Shown: piece by piece, positions 1-27,361 of the stretch
Layout of the letters: each line of letters begins with the position of its first letter
How positions within the stretch are numbered: the first letter of the stretch is position 1
Assembly: GCA_018992565.1 (NCBI GenBank)
Contig: JACVGW010000015.1
Span: 1-41,151, forward strand
DNA from: Theionarchaea archaeon
GTDB taxonomy: Archaea > Methanobacteriota_B > Thermococci > Methanofastidiosales > SZ-28-30
Direction: 5' to 3'
DNA length: 41,151 nucleotides
The notes under the pieces: generated by a model
The model's database searches: none
What the model saw: the letters and a program-made list of their open reading frames with translations, nothing else
What the model was told of the DNA's origin: nothing
Translations under genes and position numbers: made by a program

Positions 1-4
1 CTGG

Positions 5-1129
5 ATGGTTTATCTCCTGGACCGGGGATTTTCATACAGTGTCATTGGGCTGGCCCTGGCAGTGAATGGAGGTCTAATGGCTGTGCTGGAAGTCCCCACG
101 GGTGCACTGGCAGATGCTATCAGTCGCAAGTTTTCCATAATATCAGGACTGGTGGGATATGGCCTGGTGCTGCTTGCTATTCCTTCTATTACTGGTCCAT
201 CTACTCTGGTTCTCGTATTTGCATTATGGGCGCTCCCTATGACACTTCTATCAGGGGCAGGAGAAGCCTGGGTGGTAGACAATTTGAAAGCTGAAAACCG
301 TGAGGATTTGATCAAGGAGTTCTTTGCCAAGGATATTTCTATACAAAACATGGGCACGATTTTTGCGGGATTGATAGCAGGAGTGGTGGTTCGATTTCTC
401 GGCATGGACGCACTGTGGTACCTGCAGGGTTTCATCGTGTTCATATCCATTTCAGTACTGGCACTGCAGAAAGAGCACTTCGAAAGGAAGAAAGTGCGGG
501 TTGTAGAGAGTATCATTGAGACCTGCAACAATATTCGCGATGGAGCCAGGTTCACCATGAGGGAGAGAAACGTGTTCTTTATCATGGCTGCAGTCTTTTT
601 CGTATCCGTGAGCAGTCAGATCATGACAGTCTGCTCCAAACCTTTCCTGGAAATCATGGGTGTTGCCAGGGAGTATTTTGGATATCTATCGGCAGTGGGT
701 GCTGCACTCTGTGTGGTAATGCCTTTTCTCGCGAAGTATGCAGCGGAACTTCTCAAGAGAGAACAGTACTACCTTTCACTGCATGCTCTTGGATCTGGGC
801 TGGTATTGGTCCTGGTGCTCCTGGTAAGAACGCCCGGGATGGCAGGGATCATTTTTGTATTCATGATTCTTCGTTACACCACATATGACCCGGTTCTTGA
901 ACCCTTCTTTCAGGGGTTCCTTCCACCAAAGCTGCGGGCTACCGTGGCTTCCCTGCGGAATATGGTATTATCAATGGCTGTCCTTCTGGGCGATTGCCTG
1001 ATTTCTGCATTCGCAGATATGGCAGGTCCTCAGCTGATGCTTGCTGCAGGTGGGCTCTTCTTTCTCCCTTCAGTCCTCCTATTCTGGATGGTGAAGGGCT
1101 CTCCACCCGCGTCATCTCAGTCAGGGTGA
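5..1129 (+). CDS. MFS transporter (probably 5'-truncated by window edge)
   Basis: Many hydrophobic helices; 'EVPTGALADAISRK' MFS motif-A-like loop and 'SGAGEAW' motif; reading frame is open to the window start. Confidence 0.85.
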   Translation: MVYLLDRGFSYSVIGLALAVNGGLMAVLEVPTGALADAISRKFSIISGLVGYGLVLLAIPSITGPSTLVLVFALWALPMTLLSGAGEAWVVDNLKAENREDLIKEFFAKDISIQNMGTIFAGLIAGVVVRFLGMDALWYLQGFIVFISISVLALQKEHFERKKVRVVESIIETCNNIRDGARFTMRERNVFFIMAAVFFVSVSSQIMTVCSKPFLEIMGVAREYFGYLSAVGAALCVVMPFLAKYAAELLKREQYYLSLHALGSGLVLVLVLLVRTPGMAGIIFVFMILRYTTYDPVLEPFFQGFLPPKLRATVASLRNMVLSMAVLLGDCLISAFADMAGPQLMLAAGGLFFLPSVLLFWMVKGSPPASSQSG

Positions 1130-1293
1130 ATGGTTGTTTTCCTACAGGACGTGAGGAAACTGCCTGTGGAATGATGTGCTCTTGGGTGATCAATCCACTG
1201 TGAACAGTATGCAAAAATTAAGATTGAAAAACGGCTGCAGGCAAAGAAACAAGAATAGAAAAGTTAAAAAAACAAAACCAAGCTCTTCTCATC

Positions 1294-1389
1294 CTAATAG
1301 GGACTGGGGCAGGCCATCTTAACGTCGGAGTCTGTCACTGCTGTGAATGCATCTCCCAGTTCCTTGTCACTAGATCTGTCTACTTCCAT
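1294..1389 (-). CDS. Putative RiPP precursor peptide P1, 31 aa MEVDRSSDKELGDAFTAVTDSDVKMACPSPY
   Basis: Hand-translated; ATG preceded by AAGGTGA RBS and TTTTTATA box (1420-1427); homologous to three neighbouring peptides; T-rich tract downstream on minus strand. Confidence 0.8.
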   Translation of the reverse strand: MEVDRSSDKELGDAFTAVTDSDVKMACPSPY

Positions 1390-1490
1390 TGTATCACCTT
1401 TCCAATTTCTCTTTACCACTATAAAAACCTATCGTTCGCGCGTATGCCATACAGTGGGGGTCAGCGCCTGACATGTCACAGCCATGTCAA

Positions 1491-1586
1491 CTAGAGCCTG
1501 CACCCTGCTGACGAGTCAATGGTGTCTGCCACAATTGTGAATGCTTCTCTCATTTCTGGTGAAAGAAGTATATCGATCTCTTCCAT
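1491..1586 (-). CDS. Putative RiPP precursor peptide P2, 31 aa MEEIDILLSPEMREAFTIVADTIDSSAGCRL
   Basis: Hand-translated; GAGGTGA RBS, TTTTTAAA box (1619-1626) 32 nt upstream of ATG; leader nearly identical to P3. Confidence 0.85.
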   Translation of the reverse strand: MEEIDILLSPEMREAFTIVADTIDSSAGCRL

Positions 1587-1800
1587 AATATCACCTCTGC
1601 ACTTCTTTGATTTCTGAATTTAAAAATCTTTCTATTTGATGATACCATACAGACAGATACCTGGTTAGAACTACTATCAAAAAACACAAATATCACGATA
1701 AAACTTCATACGGAAGAATCAACTAGTCCCTTGGAATGACATCCGTATTGGATGACCCGCAAAAACCATTCCATCTATTCTTGATGAGACAGAGATGGTA

Positions 1801-1848
1801 AAGGGAAAAAACAAAAGGGGATACAGATTTTGAAGTGTCTGAGACACT
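1801..1848 (-). terminator. Possible terminator of P3 (inverted repeat AGTGTCT-G-AGACACT followed by oligo-T tract on minus strand)
   Basis: Inverted repeat at 1834-1848; minus strand then reads CCCCTTTTGTTTTTTCCCTT, typical of archaeal U-rich terminators. Confidence 0.4.
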
Positions 1849-1862
1849 GACTTCTGCAGACC

Positions 1863-1967
1863 CTATGTGCAAGTGGGTGGACACTTGATTGGTGGACTAA
1901 TAGAATCTGACAGAATTGCCAAGGCATCTTTCATCTCCGGTGAAAGAAGCATATCGATCTCTTCCAC
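1863..1967 (-). CDS. Putative RiPP precursor peptide P3, 34 aa MEEIDMLLSPEMKDALAILSDSISPPIKCPPTCT
   Basis: Hand-translated; GTG start with GAGGTGA RBS, TTTTTAAA box (2000-2007) 32 nt upstream; immediately downstream of SPASM enzyme. Confidence 0.85.
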   Translation of the reverse strand: MEEIDMLLSPEMKDALAILSDSISPPIKCPPTCT

Positions 1968-2034
1968 AACATCACCTCTACTCCCCTTTCTTTTTAGAGT
2001 TTAAAAATGTTGGTGCTCATGACTCCTTCAAATG

Positions 2035-3402
2035 TCAACAATAGTGAATATGATATGGCCCAGTATCTTTTGCCCCTTCCAAAATGAGATACTTGTGCCA
2101 CCATTTGCAGAATTCGCACATGGGATCAATTGCAGTCATATCTCCATACGAGAAATGTGCTGTGGCAGCACATCCCGCCCCACATATGTTCCTCCAGTTA
2201 CATGTCCTGCATTCAGGGATTGTATCTACTCGTGTGCAGACTTTTTTCCTGATTTCGAGAAATCTCGTTCCTTCCCGGATGGACTGTATATCCTCTTCTG
2301 TGACATTTCCAATAATTGCATCTGCCCCATCAAAGAGCTGACAGGGATAGACATTTCCAGCTGAATCAATCCTCAATTCTTGTCCCATATTGCAGATACG
2401 AACTTTTAATCCCACTGCAGGTGCTGCTTTGTCCTCGATTTCTATGACCTCCAGGGTTCCTTTCAGGTCTTTTCTCGCTCTGTAGACTTTCTTCTGGAAC
2501 TGGATTGCTTCTTCAAGACTCAGACCCAGAGTATTCCATATCGGGACTGCCCTCCCCTGATGGTACACTTTTGAGAAAATGACTTCATTGATACCCTTAC
2601 CAAGACAGAAGTCAATCATTGTATCCACTTCTTCAACATTCAGTCTGCTTGCTGTAAAGGAAATGCGCATATTCTTCTTCAATCCCTGATCTAGAAGATT
2701 ATCAATGCCCTGTATTGTCCTCTTGAATGCACCCTTTCCCCGTATGCTGTCATGGACTTCTTCCTGCGTGCTATCCAGGGAGATCTGCAGAGTCATATCC
2801 TGCTGACGATACCCGGCCAGAAGAGCTGCTGTATCCTCATCAATGAGTGTGCCGTTGGTAGCTATTGTCGTCTTGAGGTTGTTCTCCAGGGAATACTCCA
2901 GGAGCTCATCCCATCCCTTCCTCATCAGTGGTTCTCCGCCGCTGATGTAGATGGACCATCCTTTGACTGCCACCAGATAGTCAATGCACTCTTTGATTTT
3001 TTCCAGAGATATCTCTTCCCTGCAGGCCCGGCCTGCATTCACATCACAGTGGATACAATGCAGGTTGCAGCGCGACGTGATCTCGAAGTACAGATTCGTC
3101 AAGGGAGGTAGTGATGGAACATTCACAGACAACCCCTCAAAATGAGGCGAATCAAAAGCAATGATAAGACTCTTTCTCAGGTAGCGAACAATGGTGAGAA
3201 AAGTATCAAAAGAAACCTCTGACTTCACCTGCTCATAAATGTGCTCCAAGGTACACCTACCATTGCACAGCTGAAGAATTCTATATCCCATCTCATCCAA
3301 CATGCACCACGATGGAATATGAGGGTTGAGGATGAAATTCATGCCATTCTCCTTGAACAGCAGCGCACCCTCAATTTGGCACGGTTTTTTGCCTATATCC
3401 AC
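2035..3402 (-). CDS. Radical SAM/SPASM peptide maturase with N-terminal RRE(PqqD)-like domain
   Basis: CNLHCIHC, SGGEP, SPASM cysteines (CNMG...GNVYPC...CRTCNWRNICGAGC...DPMC); N-terminal 'LDEMGYRILQLCNGRCTLEHI' resembles RRE helices. Start re-placed at GTG 3402 (AAGGTG RBS); ORF track extends to 3609. Confidence 0.9.
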   Translation of the reverse strand: MDIGKKPCQIEGALLFKENGMNFILNPHIPSWCMLDEMGYRILQLCNGRCTLEHIYEQVKSEVSFDTFLTIVRYLRKSLIIAFDSPHFEGLSVNVPSLPPLTNLYFEITSRCNLHCIHCDVNAGRACREEISLEKIKECIDYLVAVKGWSIYISGGEPLMRKGWDELLEYSLENNLKTTIATNGTLIDEDTAALLAGYRQQDMTLQISLDSTQEEVHDSIRGKGAFKRTIQGIDNLLDQGLKKNMRISFTASRLNVEEVDTMIDFCLGKGINEVIFSKVYHQGRAVPIWNTLGLSLEEAIQFQKKVYRARKDLKGTLEVIEIEDKAAPAVGLKVRICNMGQELRIDSAGNVYPCQLFDGADAIIGNVTEEDIQSIREGTRFLEIRKKVCTRVDTIPECRTCNWRNICGAGCAATAHFSYGDMTAIDPMCEFCKWWHKYLILEGAKDTGPYHIHYC

Positions 3403-3413
3403 TCTTACACCTT

Positions 3414-3491
3414 CTAGCACGTGAATGCTAGTGGTACGACACTGGAAATCGCGTCGAACGCAGATTTCATAAGGACTATGTCTTCGTCCAT
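3414..3491 (-). CDS. Putative RiPP precursor peptide P4, 25 aa MDEDIVLMKSAFDAISSVVPLAFTC
   Basis: Hand-translated; GAGGTGA RBS, TTTATATA box (3526-3533) with purine-rich BRE; stop 11 nt before the SPASM start; shares MxxAF...C pattern with P1-P3. Confidence 0.8.
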   Translation of the reverse strand: MDEDIVLMKSAFDAISSVVPLAFTC

Positions 3492-3701
3492 TTTTCTCAC
3501 CTCTTTCCCCAGTGTCACGCTGCCATATATAAAGCTTTCTCTTCCAATCTTCCTGACATGTTAATGCGGCAAGAATGACACCAAAAGAAACAAAAGGTTT
3601 CTCACTCAAATCTGGACTGCATCTGAAGTCATTGAGAAGAATTCCTGCAGTCAGAGCCCCGGAGAAGGGTTCAGGGTGACTATTGAGGTCTGTACATACA
3701 T

Positions 3702-4118
3702 TCAGGGCGGGGCAGTTTCCATGACTGCAAACCGGATTATCACCAGCACGTGAGTTCCATACCCATAGGGATCTTTGAAAAACATATAATGGGACCCATC
3801 ACTGTCTTCTGGATTCCCCACCTCCAGATGAGGATGTACACCTGACTCAGAAATCTCCCGAATCAGAGTGTTAGTCTCTGAGGTTCCAATTAAAATCAGG
3901 TTGAGCTGCTTCTTATCCTCTTCTGTAACCTCTTCGTCGAACTTAACAATATCCACGATGCGTATGTCAGCAAGTTCGCCACTGGAAAATCCCACTTTTG
4001 TGGCAATAGATGAGGCAAACACAATGTCCAGAGAAGGGCAGTTTTCCCCAACCACTATGACAAAAGCGGGGGTACCTTCTGCGTTCAGGAAAAAGGGAAG
4101 TCGCGCGAAGTTCACCAT
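3702..4118 (-). CDS. Small S-layer-protein-domain-like protein
   Basis: 'IVVGENCPSLDIVFASSIA' and 'NLILIGTSETNTLI' resemble the N- and C-terminal conserved blocks of Methanococcales/Thermococcales S-layer family; no evident signal peptide. Confidence 0.55.
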   Translation of the reverse strand: MVNFARLPFFLNAEGTPAFVIVVGENCPSLDIVFASSIATKVGFSSGELADIRIVDIVKFDEEVTEEDKKQLNLILIGTSETNTLIREISESGVHPHLEVGNPEDSDGSHYMFFKDPYGYGTHVLVIIRFAVMETAPP

Positions 4119-4209
4119 GGAAACACCATGGATTTCTTCTCCAAGGAGCTTATAAACCTACTCCTTTCTATGAGCGATCTTCAGGAATAATTGGTAGTGG
4201 ACGAAGATG

Positions 4210-4225
4210 CGAAATCCTTTTAAAG
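4210..4225 (+). promoter_or_regulatory. BRE/TATA promoter for C/D sRNA-nop5-flpA
   Basis: CGAAATCC-TTTTAAAG, about 20-25 nt upstream of the predicted sRNA 5' end. Confidence 0.6.
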
Positions 4226-4245
4226 AAAAAAGAAGAGATAGTGTT

Positions 4246-4310
4246 GGTGAGGGATGACGAACAATCTGTCTTTCCGAACGGTGAAGAACTCACGACGAAC
4301 CGACCTCACT
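4246..4310 (+). ncRNA. Box C/D methylation guide sRNA
   Basis: Terminal stem GTGAGG(4247-4252)/CCTCAC(4304-4309); C box ATGACGA 4254-4260; 13-nt spacer; D' CCGA 4274-4277; C' GTGAAGA 4281-4287; 12-nt spacer; D CCGA 4300-4303; size and spacing match archaeal dual-guide sRNAs; sits just upstream of nop5. Confidence 0.8.
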
Positions 4311-4341
4311 CATTTATTGTTTTGGATTACAGGCTGATTGC

Positions 4342-5319
4342 ATGAGTACGGGTTATTTGATAGGCAACTGGAGCCGATTCTACATAGTAGATGAGAATAA
4401 TCGTTCTGTGGCAAAGACAGAGTTTTCAGGCTCGGAGCAGGAATGCACAGAGAAGGTCCGCAACCTGCGGAGAGGTGTTCCACCCCCGGAGATCATCACT
4501 CTGATAGAGGAAGCAGGACCTCTGGTAGAAACACTGGTCGTTGAAGATGATGCACTGGCTAGAACCCTCCAGCAGACTACTGGGTGTACTGTTACTGTGC
4601 CTGCGTCCCCTAACGACATGTTTCGCAGGCTCAGGCTCATGTTCTTCAAGAAAGGAATTCACAGCAGGCATCCTCTGGCTGTCTCCACAGCACGTGAAGA
4701 CAAGAAGGAAGCAGACACACATCCAGACATGCGCATCCTGCGCCTGGTGGACATGCTCACTATGTATGACGAATCATACCAGTTCTACAACAATTTCAAG
4801 GAAACCTGGTATGAGAATAGGTTTTCAGATAAAGAATCCCCCGTAATTCAACCAGACCTCCAGCAGGAAGAGTCAATCGTCAGGAATACGGATGGACTTC
4901 TTGAAGTGGTGTCTGTCCTGCGCAAGAGAACGCGAAAAGCACTGGCTCTTGTGCTGAGAGAATATTCACCAACCCTCTACAACGTAGCTGGACTGGAAAT
5001 TGCTGCCAGGCTCATTGCTGAAGCTGGCTCTCTGGAGAGGTTGGCGACAATGTCTGCCGGGACTATTCAGATTCTGGGTGCCAGGAAGGCCTTCTTTAGA
5101 GCAAAGCATTCAGGATCACCTTTTCCCAAGTTTGGGATCATTTTCTCCCATCCCTATATTCAGGCACTACCCTCTCATCACAGAGGTAAGATGGCCAGAC
5201 TCCTGAGCTGCCAGATTGCCATTGCTGCCCGGGCAGACGTTTACACACACAGAGATATCTCAAGACAGTTGCGATTGAAGCTCAAGAAGAGATTTTACCA
5301 GCTGAGGGGAATACTATGA
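4342..5319 (+). CDS. nop5: C/D box RNP scaffold protein Nop5 (Nop56/58), divergent and short
   Basis: Nop domain 'AARLIAEAGSLERLATMSAGTIQILGARKAFFR...PKFGIIFSHP...RGKMARLL...AARAD'; overlaps fibrillarin start (ATGA). Confidence 0.9.
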   Translation: MSTGYLIGNWSRFYIVDENNRSVAKTEFSGSEQECTEKVRNLRRGVPPPEIITLIEEAGPLVETLVVEDDALARTLQQTTGCTVTVPASPNDMFRRLRLMFFKKGIHSRHPLAVSTAREDKKEADTHPDMRILRLVDMLTMYDESYQFYNNFKETWYENRFSDKESPVIQPDLQQEESIVRNTDGLLEVVSVLRKRTRKALALVLREYSPTLYNVAGLEIAARLIAEAGSLERLATMSAGTIQILGARKAFFRAKHSGSPFPKFGIIFSHPYIQALPSHHRGKMARLLSCQIAIAARADVYTHRDISRQLRLKLKKRFYQLRGIL

Positions 5320-5999
5320 CGCAAGTTTCACACACCACGAACCCCCGTGTTTTCTACATGCTCCAGGGGAGGAAGAAAGTCCTGCTGACACAGGATGCGT
5401 CCCCCGAATATTCTGTGTACGGAGAACAAAAAGTAGAGGCTGATTCACATATCTTCCGAACCTGGGATCCGTACAGGAGCAAACTTGCTTCATCCATCCT
5501 GGAAGGCCTCCCCTCTATACCCATCAGGGAAGAAGATACTGTCTTATACCTGGGAGCTGCCAACGGCACCACTGCCTCTCATATTTCCGACATTGTAGGG
5601 AGTTCTGGAGTAGTTTACTGTGTTGAATTCAGCCCTGTTCCCTTTGGGGATTTAATCCGCCTGGCAGAGCACAGGACAAATATCTTTCCCATTCTGGCAG
5701 ATGCACGTGATCCTGTGCAGTACTCCTTCATGGTGGGGGGAGTGGATGTCCTCTACTGTGACCTGGCACAACCGTCTCAATGTGAGATTGTCCTTTCCAA
5801 TGCAGCCCGCTTCTTGCGGTCAGGAGGGCACCTCCTGCAGGCCATCAAAGCATCTTCTATCGATAGCTCGCTTCCCCCTTCACAGGTATATGAAACAGCA
5901 GTATCTGAACTCTCAAGAGGGTTTGCCATTCGTTCAACAATTCCCCTTGACAGATATCAGAAAAAGCATATCATGGTATGGGGCGTATACGCACCATAA
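5316..5999 (+). CDS. flpA: Fibrillarin-like rRNA/tRNA 2'-O-methyltransferase
   Basis: 'VYGE', 'WDPYRSKLAS', 'VLYLGAANGTTASHISDIV', 'VEFSP', 'NIFPILADAR', 'DLAQP', 'IKASSID' fibrillarin motifs. Confidence 0.96.
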   Translation: MTQVSHTTNPRVFYMLQGRKKVLLTQDASPEYSVYGEQKVEADSHIFRTWDPYRSKLASSILEGLPSIPIREEDTVLYLGAANGTTASHISDIVGSSGVVYCVEFSPVPFGDLIRLAEHRTNIFPILADARDPVQYSFMVGGVDVLYCDLAQPSQCEIVLSNAARFLRSGGHLLQAIKASSIDSSLPPSQVYETAVSELSRGFAIRSTIPLDRYQKKHIMVWGVYAP

Positions 6000-6055
6000 C
6001 GTGGGCACAGATGTAATATCGTACTACAGAAGTCGTGGACACGTGTCCCAGCACC

Positions 6056-7360
6056 TTATTCTGTACAATAAATGCCTTCCTGAATTTCTTCCTCCGCCCT
6101 CTCAACGATAATTCTCTGAGAAGCAGTGAATGACCGCATGGGCTGGGGCCAGTCATAAACAGTGTGCAGTTTCTCTCTGAAGTCAAAGGTAAGATTAACC
6201 TTTCCTCTGAGCTCTGGATATGCCCTGAAAACCTGGTCAGTCATGGTCTTCTGGATCTCAGCCACACGACCAGGATACATCCCGGGAGGATAGTTCAGGT
6301 ATAGTGTGACAGTAATCTCACTGCGCTCCCTGTTGACATCAATCCTCACAGGTTTGTAGCAGTAGGGCTCCCTCATCCAGATATCTGGAATATCATCCAC
6401 AATATCCAGGAAGGTCTTGAAAGACACGCAGGTATCATGAATGAAGGCCAGCTCTTCTGATCTTCCCTGAAGCTCAAATGCAAATCCTTCTGAACACTGT
6501 TTTATCTCCACAATATCCTCCGTATTGTAGCGCAGAAGAAGCTGCATCTGCCTGTAGGGGTAGACGGTGGTCACCAGGAGATACCCGGAACCTGTTGTCA
6601 GAGGTTCATAGGTCTCAGTATCCACCACTTCAGGAATGACTGTGGGATTGAAATGGAAGTAATTGCAGCAGGGAAGCCTGGCTGCCACCGCCGCAGTCTC
6701 CGTATTTGCATAACAGTCTATGTACTTCCCGTTGAAAACCTGTTCCACCAGCCTGATCCAGTAAGGAGATATATAGTCTCCTGTTCCAAATATGTATTTC
6801 ACCGATACAGTGTCAAGACCCCTCCTCACTAGCTCCAGGGTCAGGGCTTTGAGGTTCTCCTGCGATGTGAAAGAGATAATTGAGGGAGAAGAATCCACTC
6901 CCGGAATCGCGTGCGTATGAGTAAGATCACTGATAATGTTCTCTAAATTCCTAGTGTGGACATTCGCATCAAGGAAATGGTCCAGCCAGAAGACTTCAGT
7001 AGGTACTTTGAGAGGCAGCCCGTGATCTGTGTTGTGGACCAGGATCCCCAGAAACCGAGATTTCCTTTCTGGAGGGTTGCCATACATGGCTGCAAGCTCT
7101 TCTCGTGCATAGTAGACAGGGATTGCATTTCCCGTGGTCCCTCCTGTCCAGGTAACATGTTCAGGAACCAGTGTATGGGCAATAAATCCCTCAGGATTCC
7201 GCTTCAGGTGGTCTTTGGTGGTGATGGGAAGGGTTGGCAGATCTTTCAACTCAAAGGTTTCAATGTCAACTTTTTCAAGGATTCTCTCATAGAACAGCAG
7301 GTTTTCCTTCATGTAACCAAGTGTTGCCCTGAGAGGTTCCAGTTCTTCCTCCTGATTCAT
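6056..7360 (-). CDS. Phenylacetate-CoA ligase (PaaK)-like adenylate-forming enzyme
   Basis: 'LPITTKDHL', P-loop-like 'TGGTTG', 'YANTE', 'LRYNTEDIV', 'QGRSEE' motifs of the PaaK/F390 synthetase family. Confidence 0.8.
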   Translation of the reverse strand: MNQEEELEPLRATLGYMKENLLFYERILEKVDIETFELKDLPTLPITTKDHLKRNPEGFIAHTLVPEHVTWTGGTTGNAIPVYYAREELAAMYGNPPERKSRFLGILVHNTDHGLPLKVPTEVFWLDHFLDANVHTRNLENIISDLTHTHAIPGVDSSPSIISFTSQENLKALTLELVRRGLDTVSVKYIFGTGDYISPYWIRLVEQVFNGKYIDCYANTETAAVAARLPCCNYFHFNPTVIPEVVDTETYEPLTTGSGYLLVTTVYPYRQMQLLLRYNTEDIVEIKQCSEGFAFELQGRSEELAFIHDTCVSFKTFLDIVDDIPDIWMREPYCYKPVRIDVNRERSEITVTLYLNYPPGMYPGRVAEIQKTMTDQVFRAYPELRGKVNLTFDFREKLHTVYDWPQPMRSFTASQRIIVERAEEEIQEGIYCTE

Positions 7361-7371
7361 GGTATTCCCTG

Positions 7372-7470
7372 CTACTTCTTTTTCACATTCACAGGTCCCA
7401 CTTCACTCATCATGATGCGGGGAATCTCTTCTTCCAACTCTTTTTCCTTTTCATCTGACTTTTCTTCCAC
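7372..7470 (-). CDS. Short acidic peptide, 32 aa MEEKSDEKEKELEEEIPRIMMSEVGPVNVKKK (candidate precursor)
   Basis: GTG start with strong GGAGGTG RBS, fills the gap between B12-rSAM and ligase genes in the same operon. Confidence 0.65.
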   Translation of the reverse strand: MEEKSDEKEKELEEEIPRIMMSEVGPVNVKKK

Positions 7471-7513
7471 TGAAACACCTCCTCTCGTATACCCTCCTGG
7501 CCCATCACCTGTC

Positions 7514-8896
7514 TTATAGCAGCACATCCTCAATGGAGGCTGCCAGATACAGGATAGCTTCAAGAATCTCCTTATAGCTCATCCAATCAGTCTCCAAGGA
7601 AGGTCTTCCTGATAGCGACTCAGAATTCTCCCACCACCTTCCCAGAGGACGCACTCCCAGCTGGTCTCCTTCCTTCCACACGGGAGAGTCAGGATAACAG
7701 GTTAAGGCTGTAACATTGACCATCTCCAGTTCCATTTTCCGCACAAAGTCAATCGTATCATCAATTTCCTTCAAGGTCTGTTTGGGCAGTCCGACAATAA
7801 GCCCTGTCCTGATGGTCATGCCAGCGTCGCGGGTCAGCCGTAAGGCAGTCTCGATGTCTTCCAATTTTATGTGTTTTCTGCATGCATCGAGAACCTTCTG
7901 AGACGCACATTCCACTCCGTAGAACATGGAATAGCAGCCTGCTTCACGCATCTTTGAAATGAGCTCAGGGGTTACGTAGTCAGGTCTGGTAATACATGTC
8001 CACTCCACATCAATACCTCTCTCCAGTATCTCATCGCAGATTTGAAAAGCCCGATCCATGTCATAGGTGAAGAATTCATCATGGAATCCAATGAATTTTC
8101 TCCCCTGAGATCGTGCCATTTCCATTTCATCTACAGTGCTCTGTGCTGACCTGCCTCTCCATGTATTACAATACATGTGCGAATTGTGACAGAAAATGCA
8201 TTTATATCTGCATCCCCTGGAGGAAATTATCCAGTAAACATCTCCTGGATATCCTGTCTTCTTCATGTATTCCAAGAGCTTGAGCGTAGCAATTCGCTCC
8301 TTTGCATATCCTACCGGGGGTATGAGGTCATACGCAGGGAGCGGTAGTTCATCCAGGCAGTCAGGGAACTCTCGCGGATTGTGGATGACAGATCCATTCG
8401 CCCGAAAAGAGACGTTTGGTATGCCCTGAAGATCACCAAGAGATACCAGCTGTCGTACCAGTTGAATCGCACAAAACTCGGGCTCAACGTGGATGACTGC
8501 GTCAATAGGCCATGTGGACAGCATGATTTCCGATGCCAGGTCGTCCCATGTTCCTTCCACTGCGACTCTCATGTGGGGATGTACCTCTTTGAGAGCCTGT
8601 ATGAGCCGATGTGTGAAGTTGTAGTTGGTATAGTAACCGTAGACTATTGCCACATCATATTGATCTTTGCTCACGGCAACCCGGCAGGAATCAATAACAG
8701 ACTCGGGGGGCCGCAGGGGGAAGGGAGCATTAATACTGGAACGCGGATCTGTGGCCATCTCTTCTGCGGACACGTATCCATTCAAATCGATTGCATCAAA
8801 AGGAATGCCAGCCTGGCGCAGCAGTGATGCTACGTACATGAACGGAAAGGGTGGACACTTGGGTCGAGTTGGCGTGTGGAGCAGAAGCACCTTCAT
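7514..8896 (-). CDS. B12-binding domain radical SAM enzyme
   Basis: N-terminal Rossmann-like B12 domain; 'SSRGCRYKCIFC', 'DEFFT', 'WTCITR', 'GVEC'. Confidence 0.9.
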   Translation of the reverse strand: MKVLLLHTPTRPKCPPFPFMYVASLLRQAGIPFDAIDLNGYVSAEEMATDPRSSINAPFPLRPPESVIDSCRVAVSKDQYDVAIVYGYYTNYNFTHRLIQALKEVHPHMRVAVEGTWDDLASEIMLSTWPIDAVIHVEPEFCAIQLVRQLVSLGDLQGIPNVSFRANGSVIHNPREFPDCLDELPLPAYDLIPPVGYAKERIATLKLLEYMKKTGYPGDVYWIISSRGCRYKCIFCHNSHMYCNTWRGRSAQSTVDEMEMARSQGRKFIGFHDEFFTYDMDRAFQICDEILERGIDVEWTCITRPDYVTPELISKMREAGCYSMFYGVECASQKVLDACRKHIKLEDIETALRLTRDAGMTIRTGLIVGLPKQTLKEIDDTIDFVRKMELEMVNVTALTCYPDSPVWKEGDQLGVRPLGRWWENSESLSGRPSLETDWMSYKEILEAILYLAASIEDVLL

Positions 8897-10023
8897 GATT
8901 TCACCTCCTGTGTTCTTGATGGAAAGACTGGGTCCATTCTCTCAAATGTGAGTGAGTATCTGCAGGGGCCTCCACAGACAGTCACATATTTACATGACTC
9001 GCACGTCCGTGTGCACGGCTCCTGCGTATAGGTAAGAAGGCTTTGATATATATTTTTTTCGGAACACTGCTCAAGGTTGGAGAGAATGTAGGGAGGGCTT
9101 CTCAAGCAGGTACATGGAGTAATATCAAAGGTGGGCAGAACCACAATCTTGAACCTTCCTCCAATGCAGCCAAAAAACCGATTTTGTTCTGTTGTATCTG
9201 GTTTCTTATGTTCAAAGAAACATTCCGGGAAGCAGAAAACATCTTCGACAAAGATGGGGGTCTTGTACTGGTTTTGCAGAGAAGAAATCTCTGATGAAAG
9301 CGCATAGTAATCTGGTCTGCTCAATCTGAGTTCAGATGGGGCATTCCCTGTTATTCTTACATTATGATATTCTACACCTGACACACCAATGCGACATACT
9401 CTTTCCATAATATCTGTCACCTGGTGCTTGTTATGCTGGGTCAACGTGCACAGTGTGGTAGTGTCGACACCGTGGGATACCAGAAGATGCAGTGCGTCAA
9501 TGACCTTTCTCAAAGACTCGGGCGAGGCATTAATCCCTTCAAAAAGTTCATCTGCAGCGTCCAGGCTGACAGATGCATCAATCCCCAAGTCTGCCAGAAG
9601 TCGAGCGTGCTCTTCTGTGAGGAGAGTCGCATTGGTAACCAGGTCAAGATCCCACGAATACTGACTCATATACTCCAGAAGATGCGTGATGTCACTCCGT
9701 ATTAAAGGCTCCCCACCGCTTATGAAAATCTTCTTGAAGTGCATACGGTGCAGCTTGTCCACAGCATCAGCCAGTTGATCAAAAGTAGGATGTCCTGCAG
9801 GTGAGACTGCATAGCAGTATTCACATCGGAGGTTGCATCGTGAGGTAACCTCAAACCACACCTTAAATGGTAGGAGTATGTCTGCATGTTCTGTTTGAAG
9901 TTCTTCTCCCTGGTACGTACAGGGGAGGACAAACTGATTTCTGTAGATGTGACCCTCTTCAGTCTCGAACCACCAGCATCCATAGTCTTTGACTTTGCGG
10001 ATTCTCGGCATCATATCTCTCAA
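8893..10023 (-). CDS. Radical SAM/SPASM-domain enzyme
   Basis: CNLRCEYC, SGGEP, C-terminal 'CIGGR...ITPC...CESCKYVTVCGGPC'. True start may be the ATG at 10014 or 10011. Confidence 0.9.
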   Translation of the reverse strand: MRDMMPRIRKVKDYGCWWFETEEGHIYRNQFVLPCTYQGEELQTEHADILLPFKVWFEVTSRCNLRCEYCYAVSPAGHPTFDQLADAVDKLHRMHFKKIFISGGEPLIRSDITHLLEYMSQYSWDLDLVTNATLLTEEHARLLADLGIDASVSLDAADELFEGINASPESLRKVIDALHLLVSHGVDTTTLCTLTQHNKHQVTDIMERVCRIGVSGVEYHNVRITGNAPSELRLSRPDYYALSSEISSLQNQYKTPIFVEDVFCFPECFFEHKKPDTTEQNRFFGCIGGRFKIVVLPTFDITPCTCLRSPPYILSNLEQCSEKNIYQSLLTYTQEPCTRTCESCKYVTVCGGPCRYSLTFERMDPVFPSRTQEVKS

Positions 10024-10199
10024 AGCTGGTGATAAATCACAACCTTAAAAACTTGTTGGTTGATAGGGTTGAGAACCAACCAGGGCTGAGACTTTCCTAC
10101 ATCTCCTCTTCTAGCAGTGAGTGAGGACGCTTCTCTCACATAGAATCAAGTTCGAGATAGCTTTTTAAGCCATTCCGTTCAGAGGAAAGAGGTGATCTG

Positions 10200-11603
10200 T
10201 TGAAAGTGGTACTCTGTAATCCGCCCCAGCCCGTGTCGTTTTTTCCAAAGATCCCCCCCTTGGGGATTGCCTACCTGGGTGGCTTGCTTCGAGAAAACGG
10301 GCACGATGTGGTGTTGTACGATCTTAACATACGCCTTGGCAGTCCTATCACTCACCAGGACATCACAGACGTTGTAAAGGACATTGCAGATGATGAACCT
10401 GATATCCTGGGTGTGTCCTGCTGGGCCATGTGCATGCCCTTTGTTTCAGAATTTGTTCAGCAGTATAAACTGGAAAATGATGGGCTGGTTTTACTGGGGG
10501 GGCCGTATCCGTCGCTGGCTCCTGTTGAGACTGTCCGTGGAATTCCTGCTGACTGCTGCGTGGTGGGGGAAGGTGAACTTCCCTTGCTGGATATTGCCAG
10601 AGCTCCCCAGAACCTGGAATCTACTGAAAATGTCTGGATTCACAAAGAAGGTACTCTCATACAGAATCCGCGCCGTTCTGACTTCTATCCTCTGGATGAG
10701 CTTCCCTACCCTGCACTGGACCTGCTCCCTCCTATCGAAGCATACCAGAACATGCAGGATGACTACTGGTACATGGAAGCGCCCACATATGAGTTCCCCA
10801 TCATGGGGAGCAGGGGCTGCCCTTACAGGTGTGCTTTCTGCTCCACCCGGAAGATATGGACATCCCACAGGCGAAGAGACCCGGAGAGCATCGTAAAAGA
10901 AATCAAGCAGCTTGCCAGAGAGTATGGAGATATTTTCATTGATTTCCAGGATGATATGTTCACTCTCAGCAAGGCCTGGGTTTCATCCATTTGCAGGAAC
11001 CTGCGCTCTGAAGGCATAACTGCAGCATGGAGCTGCTGCACCAGAGTGGATTGTGTGGATGATGACATCCTCTCCACAATGAAAGCTGCAGGATGCACCA
11101 ACATTGACCTGGGAATCGAATCAATCAATGATCACGTCCTTGAGTATATCCGCAAAGGGTACACTGCAGCAGATGTCAGGAGAGGGCTTTCTGCCATTAC
11201 CGACCACGGGATCCAGGCCGAGACGACGTATATTGTGAACCTCCCTGTTGAAACGAAGGAGGATATTATGAGGACTATAGATTTTGGAGAAGAAAGCCTG
11301 AAAGAGGGAGTATCTGAAGTGACGTTTTATTTACTGACACCATACCCGGGAATTGACCTTCTAGAAGAGCACACAATTGAGTTAATGCCATCTCCTTACA
11401 GGGACAACCTGCTCAAGTACGTAGCAGGATTTTCCAGGAATCCTGAGCGTTATGATGATCCCTTCTGGCTCCCTGAAGCTTTTACTATTGTCAATCCGTC
11501 CTTGACTCAAGATGACTTCTGGGAAGTGTTCGAAAGAATACATGCTATTAACGCAACATTTCCACCATATCCATTGTCTTTCTACAAGGGTGAGAGAAAA
11601 TGA
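10200..11603 (+). CDS. B12-binding domain radical SAM enzyme
   Basis: 'PPLGIAYL', 'GGPYPS', 'VGEGE', 'SRGCPYRCAFC', 'DDMFT'; GAGGTGA RBS before TTG. Confidence 0.92.
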   Translation: MKVVLCNPPQPVSFFPKIPPLGIAYLGGLLRENGHDVVLYDLNIRLGSPITHQDITDVVKDIADDEPDILGVSCWAMCMPFVSEFVQQYKLENDGLVLLGGPYPSLAPVETVRGIPADCCVVGEGELPLLDIARAPQNLESTENVWIHKEGTLIQNPRRSDFYPLDELPYPALDLLPPIEAYQNMQDDYWYMEAPTYEFPIMGSRGCPYRCAFCSTRKIWTSHRRRDPESIVKEIKQLAREYGDIFIDFQDDMFTLSKAWVSSICRNLRSEGITAAWSCCTRVDCVDDDILSTMKAAGCTNIDLGIESINDHVLEYIRKGYTAADVRRGLSAITDHGIQAETTYIVNLPVETKEDIMRTIDFGEESLKEGVSEVTFYLLTPYPGIDLLEEHTIELMPSPYRDNLLKYVAGFSRNPERYDDPFWLPEAFTIVNPSLTQDDFWEVFERIHAINATFPPYPLSFYKGERK

Positions 11604-12994
11604 CCCTGAAAACGGTTCTCTGTAATCCGGCACAACCTGTGTACTACGTCCCCCATATACCTCCTCTGGGAATGTCATACCTTGCAGGCTACCTCAGAGA
11701 GCATGAGCAGGAGGTCACTCTGCTGGATTTCGAGCATGAAGCAACTTCCATGGGGAAGAGGACTATGAACCGGCTGGTGGACATGGCCTGCAACCTGGAG
11801 CCTGACATCATTGGATTTACTGCCTGGGCGGATTGTATGCCCTTCATTTCCGAATTCTTAACACGATTCAGGCAGCGTGCTCCTGACTGCATCACAGTGC
11901 TGGGAGGACCTCTCCCCAGTGTGGCTCCTGCAGAGACACTGGAGCTTATGCCTGCAGTAGACTACGTGGTGGTGGGAGAAGGTGAACATGTTCTTCTCCA
12001 GTTAATACAGCAATTAGAACAAGGGAAAGCCCCCGATAGTGAAGGAGTGTGCTACAAGAAGGGAGGGTCACTCTTCTACAGGCCACAGACGTCCCATGTG
12101 GACATTGAGACACTTCCCTTTCCTGCTTATGACTTGCTTCCACCTGTGAGAGATTACACCAGAGAAGGGGAGCCTACAGTGCTGACCATGGCTGCAAGCC
12201 GTGGCTGCATATATAACTGCACCTTCTGCTCATCCAAGATGATGTGGGGTCTATACCGGTGCAGAAGCGTCAACAATGTCATTGATGAAGTGGCCTTCCA
12301 TGTAAGAGAATATGGTGATATCTTCATTGATTTTCTTGATGACATCTTCACAGCCTATCCTCAGTGGGTGAAGACCTTCTGCCGCAGGCTACAGGAACGT
12401 AACCTGGATCTCAAGTGGAGCTGCATAACACGTGTTGATAGAGTGAACAGAGAGCTCCTGAAGAACCTGAAAGAGGCAGGATGCAGAATCATCTTCTATG
12501 GAGTGGATTCCGGGACACAGAGAATTCTGAACCAGATTAATAAAGGATATAAGGTGGAGGATGTCCTACGTGCCATAGAAACGAGCCTGGAATTTGGATT
12601 TTCCATTGAAAACACCTTTATAATAAACTTCCCAACAGAAACAAAACAGGAGATGATGGAGACATTGAAGCTGGCCAGAACCCTCCTGGATATGGGGGTA
12701 GAAGAAGCAGTCGTTTTCATATTGACGCCGCATCCTAATCTCAGCATCCTGGATTCTTCCAAGGAGTACTTGCCGACACCTTACAGGAACGGATTCTTAG
12801 AGTATATCAGCTATGTGACAGATACACCCCAGCAGTATGATTCTCCGTACTTCTTTCCCGAAGCATACACTCCCCGTAATCCTTCTGTAACAGAAGAAGA
12901 ATTCCAGGAGCTCTTTGAAATATGTACAGAGATTAACAAGGAATCTGGATTCCCTCTGACCTTGATGATACGGGAGAATTCTACCATTCCTTGA
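11600..12994 (+). CDS. B12-binding domain radical SAM enzyme (paralog of upstream gene)
   Basis: 'PPLGMSYL', 'GGPLPS', 'VGEGE', 'SRGCIYNCTFC'; ATGA overlap with previous gene. Confidence 0.92.
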   Translation: MTLKTVLCNPAQPVYYVPHIPPLGMSYLAGYLREHEQEVTLLDFEHEATSMGKRTMNRLVDMACNLEPDIIGFTAWADCMPFISEFLTRFRQRAPDCITVLGGPLPSVAPAETLELMPAVDYVVVGEGEHVLLQLIQQLEQGKAPDSEGVCYKKGGSLFYRPQTSHVDIETLPFPAYDLLPPVRDYTREGEPTVLTMAASRGCIYNCTFCSSKMMWGLYRCRSVNNVIDEVAFHVREYGDIFIDFLDDIFTAYPQWVKTFCRRLQERNLDLKWSCITRVDRVNRELLKNLKEAGCRIIFYGVDSGTQRILNQINKGYKVEDVLRAIETSLEFGFSIENTFIINFPTETKQEMMETLKLARTLLDMGVEEAVVFILTPHPNLSILDSSKEYLPTPYRNGFLEYISYVTDTPQQYDSPYFFPEAYTPRNPSVTEEEFQELFEICTEINKESGFPLTLMIRENSTIP

Positions 12995-14021
12995 TAAGGC
13001 GGGCCACCCGCTCCAATCCATCCCATGGTGACAGGTTCCTTCCCACTGCAATGTGGTAGTTCCGAACTCTTTCATCTGTGAGAAGGGTATGAACCTGGTC
13101 TCCTATGGGGTCTCCCAGTATGGCAAGCTCTGCAGCTCCGATGCGATGCAGATGCCGGGCATTCCTGTAGTGCTCAGTGTTCTTATCCAGAGGTGGAACT
13201 ACCAGAAGACGTGGAATGCCTATCATGGAGGCTTCAAACATAATATTCCCTCCATGACAGATGACAGCCCGTGAAGTCTTCAGGACATCAACCAGGCTCT
13301 CTACAAACCCCAGGACTTTTATTCTGTGGCTGTACTGTGGCCACTTGCTGATTTCTCTGGTGAGCTGCATGACATCATTGGGAGATGAAAGCCCTCCTAC
13401 ATGCAGGAGAAGGTTCATATCCTGCTGGTACTCCATGATCTCATTGAGAGACTGCAGCACGGAGAAATGCAGCTTGAGCCCGTAAAACCCGCTGCTGTAC
13501 GTTATGAGAAGGTCATGACCTGGCAGACTGCCCCTCTCTGGTGGTATGAGAGGACCAGTGCACAGTGTCTTATTCGTGTGGTTTAGAAGCTCAGGATCTA
13601 CCTCGAAGAATGGGGGGACAGGGAGAACGATCTTATCTGCACACATCAATGATTCAACGCAGTTATTGTGATTGTCCGCATACGCACCTTTAATGGGATA
13701 TGGTTGTGTGATGAGAATACTGGAGAGTCCCACCATCCTGCTTATAATGGGGCCAAAAAAGGCAAGATCAGATACCACAACATGGGGTCTTTTCTGTGAG
13801 AGGACAGCGTGAATATGAGAGAGTGACTGCCGTTCCAGTTGATAAAAGTAGGGCTCTGTTTCTACATGCTGGGTTTTTCTGAAATCCTGATAGAGGGGCT
13901 TCAGAGTTTCTGGTACAAAGTGAAGAAAAGTAACAGATTCTCTTTTCTGGATTTCTTTCATCAGCCTGAAGTCTCTCACAATATTACCGAAGCACTTATT
14001 ACCTGTAATGAATGCTATCAT
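12981..14021 (-). CDS. GT-B fold glycosyltransferase (GT28/GT1 C-terminal-like)
   Basis: 'RPHVVVSD', 'TGPLI', 'GFVESLVDVLKTSRAVICHGGNIMFEASMIGIP', 'EHYRNARHLHRIGAA'. Confidence 0.75.
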   Translation of the reverse strand: MIAFITGNKCFGNIVRDFRLMKEIQKRESVTFLHFVPETLKPLYQDFRKTQHVETEPYFYQLERQSLSHIHAVLSQKRPHVVVSDLAFFGPIISRMVGLSSILITQPYPIKGAYADNHNNCVESLMCADKIVLPVPPFFEVDPELLNHTNKTLCTGPLIPPERGSLPGHDLLITYSSGFYGLKLHFSVLQSLNEIMEYQQDMNLLLHVGGLSSPNDVMQLTREISKWPQYSHRIKVLGFVESLVDVLKTSRAVICHGGNIMFEASMIGIPRLLVVPPLDKNTEHYRNARHLHRIGAAELAILGDPIGDQVHTLLTDERVRNYHIAVGRNLSPWDGLERVARLIKEW

Positions 14022-14761
14022 TTTATCCTCCTGAAAAGCAGAATTTCATAAAGGTGCAACCCTCGCAGTGGCAGCTGGGAGAGCAGCCTGTCAATCATAC
14101 GAAATACTGGAGACGTATGCTTCTGATACACACGTATATCGAAAACGCAGGTACCTTTCCTCTCTGTCAGTAGAAATCCTTCTTTTCGAAACTGGTTAAT
14201 AAGTGTAGCTACTGGTTCAAATCCTGCTGCATCAAAATAGGAAAACTCGCGAAGATGTGTATACGGGCTGATATATCTCTTTTTTCCTGTAAGCAGCCGA
14301 TAGATGTTGTAGCAGGGAACACTGATGAGGATATGTCCTTTGTCTGTGCAGATGCGGGCAAGCTCAGAGACAGCTCTTTCCATTGCTGGAAGATGTTCAA
14401 GGACGTCAGTACAGACAACGAGGTCGAAAGTATGGTTAAGAAATGGTAGTTCTGTAGCTTCTGCCTGAACATACAGAGCCTGACACCGTGATTGAGAGCG
14501 ATGAAGGCGGGTCAGGGACACATCTGCGCCCACCTTCTGCAGGCCCGCAGATTCCAGGTGCCACAAGAGTACACCATCTCCGCATCCCACATCAATGATA
14601 TTCCCTTCTACACTAATACGTTCAAGTACAGAGAGAATGCATGCTAGTCGCCTGCACTCCCAGTAGAGGTTCAGCATGTCCCAGTGATATTCAGTTTCAG
14701 CTTCCATCTCATTGAGTGCAATCAAGAACTCTTTTTGATGCTCTCTGCTTCCTTGAAACAC
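14018..14761 (-). CDS. Class I SAM-dependent methyltransferase
   Basis: 'IIDVGCGDG', 'LPFLNHTFDLVVCTDVLEHL'. Confidence 0.88.
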   Translation of the reverse strand: MFQGSREHQKEFLIALNEMEAETEYHWDMLNLYWECRRLACILSVLERISVEGNIIDVGCGDGVLLWHLESAGLQKVGADVSLTRLHRSQSRCQALYVQAEATELPFLNHTFDLVVCTDVLEHLPAMERAVSELARICTDKGHILISVPCYNIYRLLTGKKRYISPYTHLREFSYFDAAGFEPVATLINQFRKEGFLLTERKGTCVFDIRVYQKHTSPVFRMIDRLLSQLPLRGLHLYEILLFRRIK

Positions 14762-15774: not shown

Positions 15775-15904
15775 TTCTACTCAACTCCATGTGTGTTTAC
15801 AGGTTCTCCATTTAAATTTATCGAGGCTGCAATTCATGGGGGCAGGAGAAGGATTTCATGTTAGAATCCAATAGGGTTTTATACTCCTCTCTCACAGAGC
15901 ACCC

Positions 15905-18504: not shown

Positions 18505-18604
18505 NNNNNNNNNNNNNNNNNNNNNNNNNNNNNNNNNNNNNNNNNNNNNNNNNNNNNNNNNNNNNNNNNNNNNNNNNNNNNNNNNNNNNNNNNNNNNNNN
18601 NNNN
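18505..18604. other. Assembly gap (100 N)
   Basis: Run of N characters. Confidence 1.
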
Positions 18605-26024: not shown

Positions 26025-26028
26025 CCGC

Positions 26029-27357: not shown

Positions 27358-27361
27358 TGGA

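Follow-up and report, generated by a model that had tools for sequence, protein, structure and literature searches.

Box C/D ribonucleoproteins (RNPs) are taught as one shared set of proteins that works with many scattered guide RNAs, and archaeal fibrillarin as a single-copy gene. What, then, is a nop5-fibrillarin (flpA) gene pair doing directly behind a guide RNA, between genes for radical S-adenosylmethionine (SAM) enzymes? The question is raised by a 41,151-nucleotide (nt) contig of a Theionarchaea archaeon (JACVGW010000015.1, assembly GCA_018992565.1), which we analysed at its full length and refer to as the window. An original prediction from its letters described a promoter, a dual-guide C/D small RNA (sRNA) at 4246-4310, nop5 31 nt further on and a coupled flpA, and we find all of them at these coordinates; annotation of the window's genes also bears out the radical SAM neighbours and the lack of an L7Ae gene in the window. 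The prediction went on to propose a second, dedicated RNA-guided methyltransferase module carrying its own guide, perhaps a self-resistance or regulatory unit for the product of the surrounding biosynthetic cluster. Below, we call the RNA and the two genes the cassette, and the two proteins Nop5-like and FlpA2.

The second Nop5-fibrillarin pair

The mundane alternative to a second module, that this is the only, housekeeping nop5-flpA locus, is refuted by a vertical pair elsewhere in the genome. There are two fibrillarin loci and two Nop-domain loci, and the other nop5-flpA pair, on contig C76, has the same gene order with a 4-nt overlap and higher family scores (Nop, 192-194 bits; Fibrillarin, 273 bits). 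In trees from quick searches, the C76 fibrillarin groups with that of the same-family genome G003 among the sequences of the order (97 in the Shimodaira-Hasegawa-like approximate likelihood ratio test, SH-aLRT), and the window's fibrillarin forms its own clade with metagenome relatives (SH-aLRT 100) on a stem of 0.9-1.35 changes per site. By these trees, the C76 pair is the vertically inherited one and the window pair is a second, divergent copy, as had been proposed.

A second full-length fibrillarin was found in none of 40 relatives, the two matches in one of them (G025) being pieces of one gene. Among 133 genomes of the phylum, the window (contig C49 of genome G000) alone matches a profile of Nop5-like over positions 1-320 (567 bits); all other matches to this profile cover the C-terminal domain only and reach at most 140.5 bits. 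Among 5.8 billion clusters, the Nop5-like clade comprises 15 full-length clusters at 50-99% identity, beyond which come canonical Nop5 proteins with a coverage of 36% of the query. The FlpA2 clade also comprises 15 clusters (62-100% identity, one of them a truncated copy), with the next matches at 53% or less. For five pairs of Nop5-like and FlpA2 clusters the longest contigs are identical in size, and in one named metagenome-assembled genome (MAG) the two accessions are consecutive. The names attached to the homologues are Theionarchaea archaeon and Candidatus Methanofastidiosia archaeon only. Two loci from a metagenome scan, L086 and L087, repeat the whole arrangement in the same order, with promoter box, RNA, T-rich spacer, nop5-like and flpA genes and the 4-nt overlap, and their fibrillarins are 71-75% identical to FlpA2. 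The claim that the pair carries its own guide thus holds beyond the window, the RNA, nop5 and flpA being kept as a unit in both loci. On viral contigs we found neither a relative of Nop5-like nor a copy of the RNA, and an exact-peptide scan of the genomes of 185,579 species, which may miss relatives, gave no fibrillarin more than 50% identical to FlpA2.

The origin of the clade was addressed with a free tree, in which FlpA2 is the neighbour of a Bathyarchaeota sequence (support 68), and with an approximately unbiased (AU) test, which does not reject a tree in which FlpA2 joins the host order (log-likelihood difference 13.9, p 0.156). Both used 57 of the 85 fibrillarins of the earlier locus set, namely 6 of 24 from the same class, 14 of 24 at order level (that of C76 included) and the 37 others in full; in place of L086 and L087 they had 14 proteins of the clade, with P0068, a truncated form of 182 amino acids (aa), omitted.

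Both proteins look functional, judging from their conserved residues and a structural model. Nop5-like matches Pfam Nop (PF01798) with 111.2 bits against a cut-off of 25.4, over residues 191-318 and the C-terminal part of the model only, and its profile matches 3id5_A (E 8e-40, residues 157-320). With the C76 Nop5, 103 C-terminal residues align at 45% identity. The N-terminal family PF21572 falls below its cut-off (25.9 bits against 27.8), as does NCBIfam NF011121 (148 bits against 452), which the genome's vertical Nop5 also misses at 310.5 bits; the first 200 residues have one match at E <= 1e-10 among 1.84 billion cluster representatives. The AlphaFold model of Nop5-like (predicted local distance difference test, pLDDT, 83.7) has an N-terminal strand/helix domain, helices at 128-160 and 171-208 and a helical C-terminal domain. 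Its best Foldseek match is the archaeal Nop5 3pla_A (E 3.7e-17, 379 aligned columns), followed by the full-length archaeal Nop5 chains 3id5_A and 3nmu_A. Of 45 columns conserved both in the clade and in 57 other Nop5 proteins, 35 are identical and 10 differ in a fixed way.

FlpA2 scores 260.6 bits with Pfam Fibrillarin PF01269 (cut-off 27) and 250.4 bits with NCBIfam NF003276 (cut-off 113), is 45% identical to the C76 fibrillarin and, of 57 columns with a conservation of 90% or more in 84 other fibrillarins, keeps 50; it has T108 and G111 where the others have two conserved arginines. The contact between the two proteins may also be kept. The helix at 91-101 of Nop5-like has invariant F94, F101 and F102, and the most conserved motif of its clade is FRRLRLMFF, with aromatics on the helix expected to face fibrillarin; FlpA2 has the Tyr of VVYCVEF, which matches this aromatic helix. 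An aromatic cluster is described as a hallmark of the archaeal Nop5-fibrillarin interface (PMC7962484). For the third protein of the RNP, the genome has a single L7Ae gene (on C131) next to one L30e gene (on C113), so L7Ae, if the cassette uses it, is shared with the ordinary system.

The searches also returned other unusual Nop-domain proteins (P0021-P0027 and P0185-P0187). Among them are short forms of 259-284 aa, one of which is named from Archaeoglobales, and three proteins that weakly match the N-terminal half of Nop5-like (29-30% identity, E 1e-6 to 1e-8); they may represent additional groups of Nop5 paralogues.

The guide RNA and its predicted target

The features of the cassette are collected in Table 1. 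Its box assignment follows the end-to-end alignments of five Pyrococcus sR models and so differs from a naive reading. The sequence has the layout of a kink-turn (k-turn), with a 7-bp stem, a bulge, the pairs G4256.A4303 and A4257.G4302, and G4259-C4300. Both the terminal motif and the internal C'/D' motif have tandem G.A pairs and a G-C at 4b.4n, the two spacers measure 13 and 12 nt, and the loop between box D' and box C' is 3 nt long. This set of features agrees with the k-turn as described in PMC7229835. Where the consensus sequences are RUGAUGA and CUGA, box C reads AUGACGA and box D reads CCGA, in L086 and L087 as in the window, and the departures fall at exactly the two positions that normally make the U.U pair. 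That pair is replaced by C.C in the terminal motif and by A.C in the internal one. The TTTTAAA of the TATA-like box, which would act as the promoter, is invariant in all three aligned loci (the window, L086 and L087). The T-rich spacer may serve in termination or processing; its 31 nt leave no space for another promoter, which probably places the RNA within the 5' leader of the nop5-like mRNA.

Table 1. Features of the cassette and their coordinates in the window.
Feature	Position	Strand	Remarks
TATA-like putative promoter box TTTTAAAG	4218-4225	+	Read from the sequence; about 21 nt upstream of the first paired base of the RNA
Double-guide box C/D-like sRNA, 65 nt	4246-4310	+	Assigned by layout, model alignments and conservation
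Terminal (canonical) stem, 5' arm	4246-4252	+	7 bp with 4304-4310, 6 invariant and 1 G-U/G-C
Bulge, 3 nt	4253-4255	+	Next to the terminal stem
Box C variant AUGACGA	4254-4260	+	Invariant in 3 loci; G4256 and A4257 are the tandem G.A partners, C4258 is 3b, G4259 is 4b
D' guide, 13 nt	4261-4273	+	12 of 13 bases kept in L086 and L087, same register
Box D' variant CCGA	4274-4277	+	CCGA in L086, CCTA in L087
Box C' variant GUGAAGA	4281-4287	+	AUGAAGA in L086 and L087
D guide, 12 nt	4288-4299	+	Spacer of 11 nt in L086 and L087, core UCACGA alone kept
Box D variant CCGA	4300-4303	+	Invariant in 3 loci; C4301 is 3n and faces C4258
Terminal stem, 3' arm	4304-4310	+	Pairs with 4246-4252
Spacer, 31 nt, with T-rich tract at 4313-4323	4311-4341	+	T runs at the same place in L086 and L087
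Nop5-like gene, 325 aa	4342-5319	+	Divergent paralogue
Fibrillarin paralogue FlpA2, 227 aa	5316-5999	+	4-nt overlap with the nop5-like stop; predicted to be translationally coupled

By several counts, the RNA exceeds chance expectation. A relaxed four-box pattern, with any base at the variable positions, occurs three times in the 2.8-Mb genome and 0, 2, 2, 0, 0, 0, 0, 0, 0 and 0 times in ten third-order Markov genomes. The five Pyrococcus sR models align full length over 4250-4305 with 10.6-12.9 bits (thresholds 36-54), and a search of the whole genome with RF00095 gave two sub-threshold matches elsewhere and nothing more. With a covariance model of the RNA (R1), G000 alone has a strong match among 34 genomes of the order (87.4 bits, E 3.8e-18), G004 having a weak one (21.9 bits, E 0.084). 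Mean column identity of the RNA is 92% in L086 and L087, whose Nop5-like proteins are 55% identical to that of the window, and the stem and the 4b.4n pair are paired in 24 of 24 cells over the three loci. In a census of C/D RNAs that gives no count of the genome's sRNAs, 7 of 43 relaxed candidates have at least nine pairs to rRNA, against a shuffled-guide mean of 4.0, and the RNAs on C49 and C137 alone stand out. By minimum free energy (MFE), 4244-4345 folds no better than its shuffled versions (z = 0.73); such folding is not expected to capture k-turn RNAs.

The other two matches to the four-box pattern have perfect consensus boxes, and they are the sole RNAs of the genome with four perfect boxes (G000:C137:3565-3619, plus strand, and G000:C50, minus-strand offset 489-543). 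The C137 RNA pairs over 10 and 8 nt with 23S rRNA, at places about 89 and 35 nt upstream of those at which the cassette aims; domain V would therefore also be a substrate of the ordinary system, with consensus boxes.

The genome's rRNA operon lies on the 68-kb contig C127. Numbered by alignment to the annotated Escherichia coli 23S rRNA, the D guide forms 10 contiguous Watson-Crick pairs with positions 2590-2599 of the cell's own 23S rRNA, and the D' guide forms 10 with positions 2598-2607, with a further G.U at 2597. U2593 lies opposite the fifth base before box D (A4295) and A2600 opposite the fifth before box D' (U4269); these two nucleotides would be the targets under the fifth-nucleotide rule (PMC7229835). 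The two sites lie 7 nt apart, and 3 of 50,000 guide shuffles give at least 10 contiguous bases for both guides. In the folded hairpin of the organism's own sequence, which has the loop GUGA, U2593 pairs with A2600, one pair from the bulged A2602. This 30-nt hairpin matches what we take to be helix 93, and the guides cover both of its strands beside A2602. The supposition that the guide aims at rRNA is thus borne out as predicted pairing, with 23S helix 93, near the peptidyl transferase centre.

Sequence differences among relatives bear on both guides. Pair 2590-2604 of helix 93 is U-A in genus g1 (G000, G001 and G002, at G000:C127:55406-55430, G001:C14:85-109 and G002:C17:534-558) and A-U in family f2, a compensatory swap seen in comparison with G004, G007 and G010. 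The guides match the g1 variant (U2590/A2604), not the f2 variant (A2590/U2604), a link between the cassette and this lineage. No part of the RNA is better conserved than the D' spacer. Because the D' guide keeps 12 of its 13 bases in the same register in L086 and L087, and the D guide keeps a 6-nt core, A2600 appears to be the conserved target; the D guide may mainly help to open the hairpin.

According to PMC4644070, helices 90-93 are a hotspot of methylation, a site at the base of helix 93 is predicted in six of the six thermophiles studied there, double guides make up 262 of 489 archaeal sRNAs, and helix 93 touches P-site tRNA at its CCA end. For C/D guides this target region is therefore ordinary, and the dedicated protein pair is the unusual part.

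A proposed dedicated methylation module and its rivals

From the directly observed anatomy, second copy, restricted and linked distribution, guide-rRNA complementarity, kept kink-turn geometry and fibrillarin core, we judge it probable, if some way from assured, that the region is an accessory, self-contained box C/D methylation module tied to one rRNA site. One promoter would drive a transcript that has the double-guide sRNA as its leader, followed by the divergent Nop5 and the divergent fibrillarin. Nop5-like and FlpA2 would assemble on the cassette RNA, most likely with the host's single L7Ae, and the two guides would open helix 93 in the 23S rRNA of the cell itself, beside the peptidyl transferase centre's bulged A2602. 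The fibrillarin would then 2'-O-methylate A2600, directed by the conserved D' guide, and in this genome probably also its pairing partner U2593, directed by the D guide, while the ordinary guide RNAs, which are few, would be left to the vertical pair on C76. What we infer here from sequence is that the RNA is expressed and processed, that the RNP assembles and methylates its target, that L7Ae is used and that the module may work only with its own RNA.

Several points weigh against such a module. FlpA2 and the C-terminal domain of Nop5-like keep most of their conserved residues, so cross-use with ordinary guides is possible. All four boxes are one base off consensus. In the covariance-model check suggested with the original prediction, no Rfam family reached its gathering score on the RNA; the five Pyrococcus models that aligned with it end to end scored far below their thresholds. 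Upstream DNA was read in three loci only, two of which come from one metagenome assembly, and across them the stem has no compensatory change, the RNAs being too similar, so that support for the RNA comes from conservation and not from covariation. The two target stretches overlap by 2-3 nt, and both guides therefore cannot fully pair with one rRNA molecule simultaneously. In L086 and L087 the D guide is not conserved: it is 11 nt long and pairs over 6-7 nt, in a shifted register, with the rRNA of G000, on which it was scored in place of their own hosts' rRNA. The 30-nt hairpin has an MFE that does not stand out from those of shuffled sequences (z = -0.56). The E. coli numbering includes a +1 calibration on one landmark, after which the letters at what we take to be the landmark positions 2580, 2585, 2602 and 2604-2605 fit. 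As for distribution, the MAG is 88% complete and the relatives without the cassette are 84-91% complete.

A further-reaching form of this reading, to which we give only a small chance, makes the cassette an orthogonal, portable RNA-guided methyltransferase. It would accept only its own cis guide, through the C.C and A.C k-turns, perhaps with L7Ae-free folding (3b being C), and would have spread in Theionarchaea and Methanofastidiosia. Its single 2'-O-methyl in helix 93, next to A2602, would alter or protect the peptidyl transferase centre, and it would be the first living example of the cis-encoded-guide layout expected if Nop5 came from IS110-type elements. Were this true, the helix-93 methyl would change the peptidyl transferase centre or shield it from an inhibitor, as an RNA-programmed counterpart of bacterial resistance methylases.

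We hold it just as doubtful that the cassette contains a plain nop5-flpA pair, duplicated or horizontally acquired, which uses the general pool of C/D guides, with the upstream RNA an ordinary guide on a neighbouring promoter. Archaeal sRNA genes are reported to use the promoters of adjacent genes (PMC5539422), and archaeal fibrillarin, described as single-copy, has duplicates in 3 of 148 genomes (PMC7608942). The conserved columns kept by FlpA2 (50 of 57) and Nop5-like (35 of 45) would also suit a general role, and with a single genomic L7Ae at least that subunit would be shared. However, the RNA and both genes stay linked at 55-75% protein identity, with the RNA at 92%, and the RNA has no strong match elsewhere in the 34 genomes of the order. 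The odd boxes are conserved, whereas the RNAs on C50 and C137 have perfect consensus boxes, and both cassette proteins sit on long, separate branches. These observations argue for a module tied to its own RNA over use of a general pool.

It is less likely still that the upstream element is mainly a k-turn feedback switch in the mRNA leader, acting on translation, and not a working methylation guide. L7Ae binds a k-turn in the nop5-fibrillarin transcript of Sulfolobus acidocaldarius, and a k-turn has been reported in Thermococcus kodakarensis (PMC5539422); in the window, too, only 31 nt separate the element from the start codon, and a second promoter would not fit between them. Two metatranscriptome runs (X19 and X20, as assembled contigs only) have contigs on both genes, with 5 of 8 pieces on 4339-5872, a share that is biased because the runs were picked using that stretch, and DNA carry-over is possible. 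No contig of theirs crosses 4246-4310, which is uninformative, as libraries of that type usually lose small RNAs. The two pieces on the nop5-like gene begin at 4339 and 4342, that is at the start codon and outside the leader (one study, low depth); as a clue to the 5' end of the mRNA this is only a hint, and in favour of a switch it counts as weak. For feedback, a k-turn could do without a second C'/D' motif and two spacers of 12-13 nt, and it has no need for 10-nt matches of both spacers to adjacent sites in the cell's own 23S rRNA, in its genus-specific variant. The high conservation of the D' spacer, above that of the rest of the RNA, also counts against a mere switch. The two roles are not mutually exclusive.

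The surroundings of the cassette bear on the proposed link to the radical SAM cluster, which would make it a self-resistance or regulatory methylation unit of that cluster. Bacterial rRNA 2'-O-methylation can give antibiotic resistance, as in thiostrepton and avilamycin producers. No drug contact at 2593 or 2600 is known to us, none having been searched for. In the window the cassette does lie between radical SAM genes, and its target is near the peptidyl transferase centre (PMC4644070 for the region). The neighbours are radical SAM and glycan genes. Taken as a whole, the window resembles a region for surface glycans (GT4, GT28, epimerase, PIG-L, O-antigen-polymerase-like and FemAB-like genes), and part of it is shared with the same-genus genome G001, which has no cassette. 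L086 has none of the window's neighbour genes. It has a gene for a pyrroloquinoline quinone (PQQ) beta-propeller protein on one side of the cassette, DUF1232, DUF4097, DUF885, ferredoxin and ATP-binding cassette (ABC) exporter genes on the other, and no radical SAM or glycosyl genes. The genes flanking the cassette in the window have no orthologues in G001-G003, only paralogues of about 30% identity. Co-occurrence of the unit with cluster genes is thus not what the relatives present, and the differing neighbours of L086, together with the distant paralogues, make the cassette a self-contained insert in a variable region and not part of a cluster. With the radical SAM-SPASM gene at 2035-3609 as query, there are 8 matches in G003, of the sister genus; in the window's own genus, where such genes are greatly expanded, G001 has 39 and G002 has 45, and with paralogues so numerous a position between them says little. 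A unit bound to this cluster is accordingly a quite improbable account; apart from the cluster, the cassette may or may not serve in resistance.

Finally, the second copy could be an artefact of assembly. The window is a contig of a MAG of 2.8 Mb in 154 contigs, 88% complete with 1.6% contamination, and is itself a scaffold with a gap of 100 N at 18505-18604. At least 87% of the words of 4200-6000 are contained in each of 18 DNA runs from seven studies, and contigs of a second study (run X9) match positions 1-14,838 at 95% identity or more. The depth of run X2 is even, at about 760-1050 over bins 1-29, with 422 in the final bin (19,344-20,000). Over the right-hand 25 kb or so of the window (15,903-40,000) there is synteny with G001, at about 80% identity. 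It does not extend into the left 16 kb, where the cassette lies, and the G001 contig terminates at the border. Near that border, at 15,903, the X9 cover at 95% identity or more stops (14,869) and X2 has loose ends (15,286 and 16,095), and the left 15 kb may be a separately inherited island. Second-study contigs, the even X2 depth and the G001 synteny show that this is genuine DNA of this lineage. A mis-binned or chimeric contig that carries another organism's copy, as the MAG's state, the gap and the ends near the synteny border might suggest, is very improbable indeed, given an X2 depth of about 950 on either side of the border, guides that match the genus-specific 23S variant, homologues named solely from Theionarchaea and Methanofastidiosia MAGs and the exact-peptide scan reported above.

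Known systems and minor observations

The preferred reading, an accessory module with its own guide, can be set beside several known systems. With the canonical archaeal box C/D small RNP (L7Ae, Nop5, fibrillarin and C/D sRNA), the cassette shares the protein families, the nop5-flpA order with its 4-nt overlap, an RNA plan of terminal k-turn, internal kink-loop and two spacers, the fifth-nucleotide target rule (PMC7229835) and the hotspot helices 90-93 (PMC4644070). It differs in being a second, divergent pair beside a vertical one, tied physically and evolutionarily to a single guide RNA, in box pairs without U.U (C.C and A.C), and in a Nop5-like protein whose N-terminal 200 residues are almost without relatives outside the clade. 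Feedback by L7Ae on the leaders of nop5-fibrillarin and l7ae mRNAs (PMC5539422, PMC6298567) likewise has a k-turn-forming element in a nop5-fibrillarin leader, but the cassette's leader is a complete double-guide RNA with rRNA complementarity and not a lone k-turn. Its C at 3b is also the opposite of the protein-dependent switches treated in PMC6298567, where a rule is quoted that C at this position favours ion-induced folding of the k-turn. With C at 3b in box C of the cassette, reduced dependence on L7Ae is a testable idea.

Eukaryotic cells also have two Nop5-family paralogues, Nop56 and Nop58, which differ in their RNA-motif preference (PMC7229835). Those two sit in one RNP and share one fibrillarin, whereas here each Nop5 has a fibrillarin of its own, and the cassette pair and the C76 pair would be split between RNPs.

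In IS110 elements, the bridge RNA lies upstream of the recombinase. The cassette resembles them in that a Nop5-family gene stands directly downstream of the bipartite guide RNA that it is expected to use, and in the proposal of a preprint, Nop5 evolved from IS110 recombinases, enzymes that work with bridge RNAs (PMC11213020). Unlike IS110, the cassette has no recombinase domain or family match, only Nop-related Pfam matches; no transposon ends or integrase were seen near it in the window or in L086, and the AU test does not place its clade. The resemblance is one of gene layout only, and descent is not indicated by the present data.

Thiostrepton and avilamycin producers have stand-alone rRNA 2'-O-methyltransferases, single proteins without a guide RNA that are encoded within the producer clusters. 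These share with the cassette one fixed rRNA ribose and the character of an accessory, patchily distributed unit. The specificity of the cassette is instead RNA-encoded, no drug is known for it, and it has no conserved linkage to a cluster.

In the literature searched, which did not extend to the supplements of PMC7608942 (the duplicate list) and PMC4644070 (the site tables), we found no second Nop5-fibrillarin pair with its own guide RNA. If the reading is true, a protein pair inherited with one guide and one rRNA target means that C/D machinery can be packaged as a dedicated accessory unit. The conserved, non-consensus kink-turns would then offer a testable handle on how Nop5 chooses its RNA and on whether L7Ae is always needed, and a targeted base pair in helix 93 beside A2602 would amount to a natural experiment on how the ribosome's catalytic centre can be tuned. 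The layout of guide followed by Nop5 bears on the proposed descent of Nop5 from RNA-guided IS110 recombinases. Tool builders, too, might take an interest in so compact a module of three parts, for which a change of 12 nt could set a new target.

Some minor observations concern the rest of the window. A contig of run X2 spans the 100-N gap at 18505-18604 with 18 letters. A search for tRNAs with ARAGORN gave none. The 41 kb include six B12-binding radical SAM genes, amid glycan genes (10200-12994, 22377-23663 and 24717-28654). PIG-L is a deacetylase and GT4 and GT28 are glycosyltransferases, part of this region being common to G001. A beta-CASP/RNase J-like gene lies at 32723-34015, in the part that is syntenic with G001.

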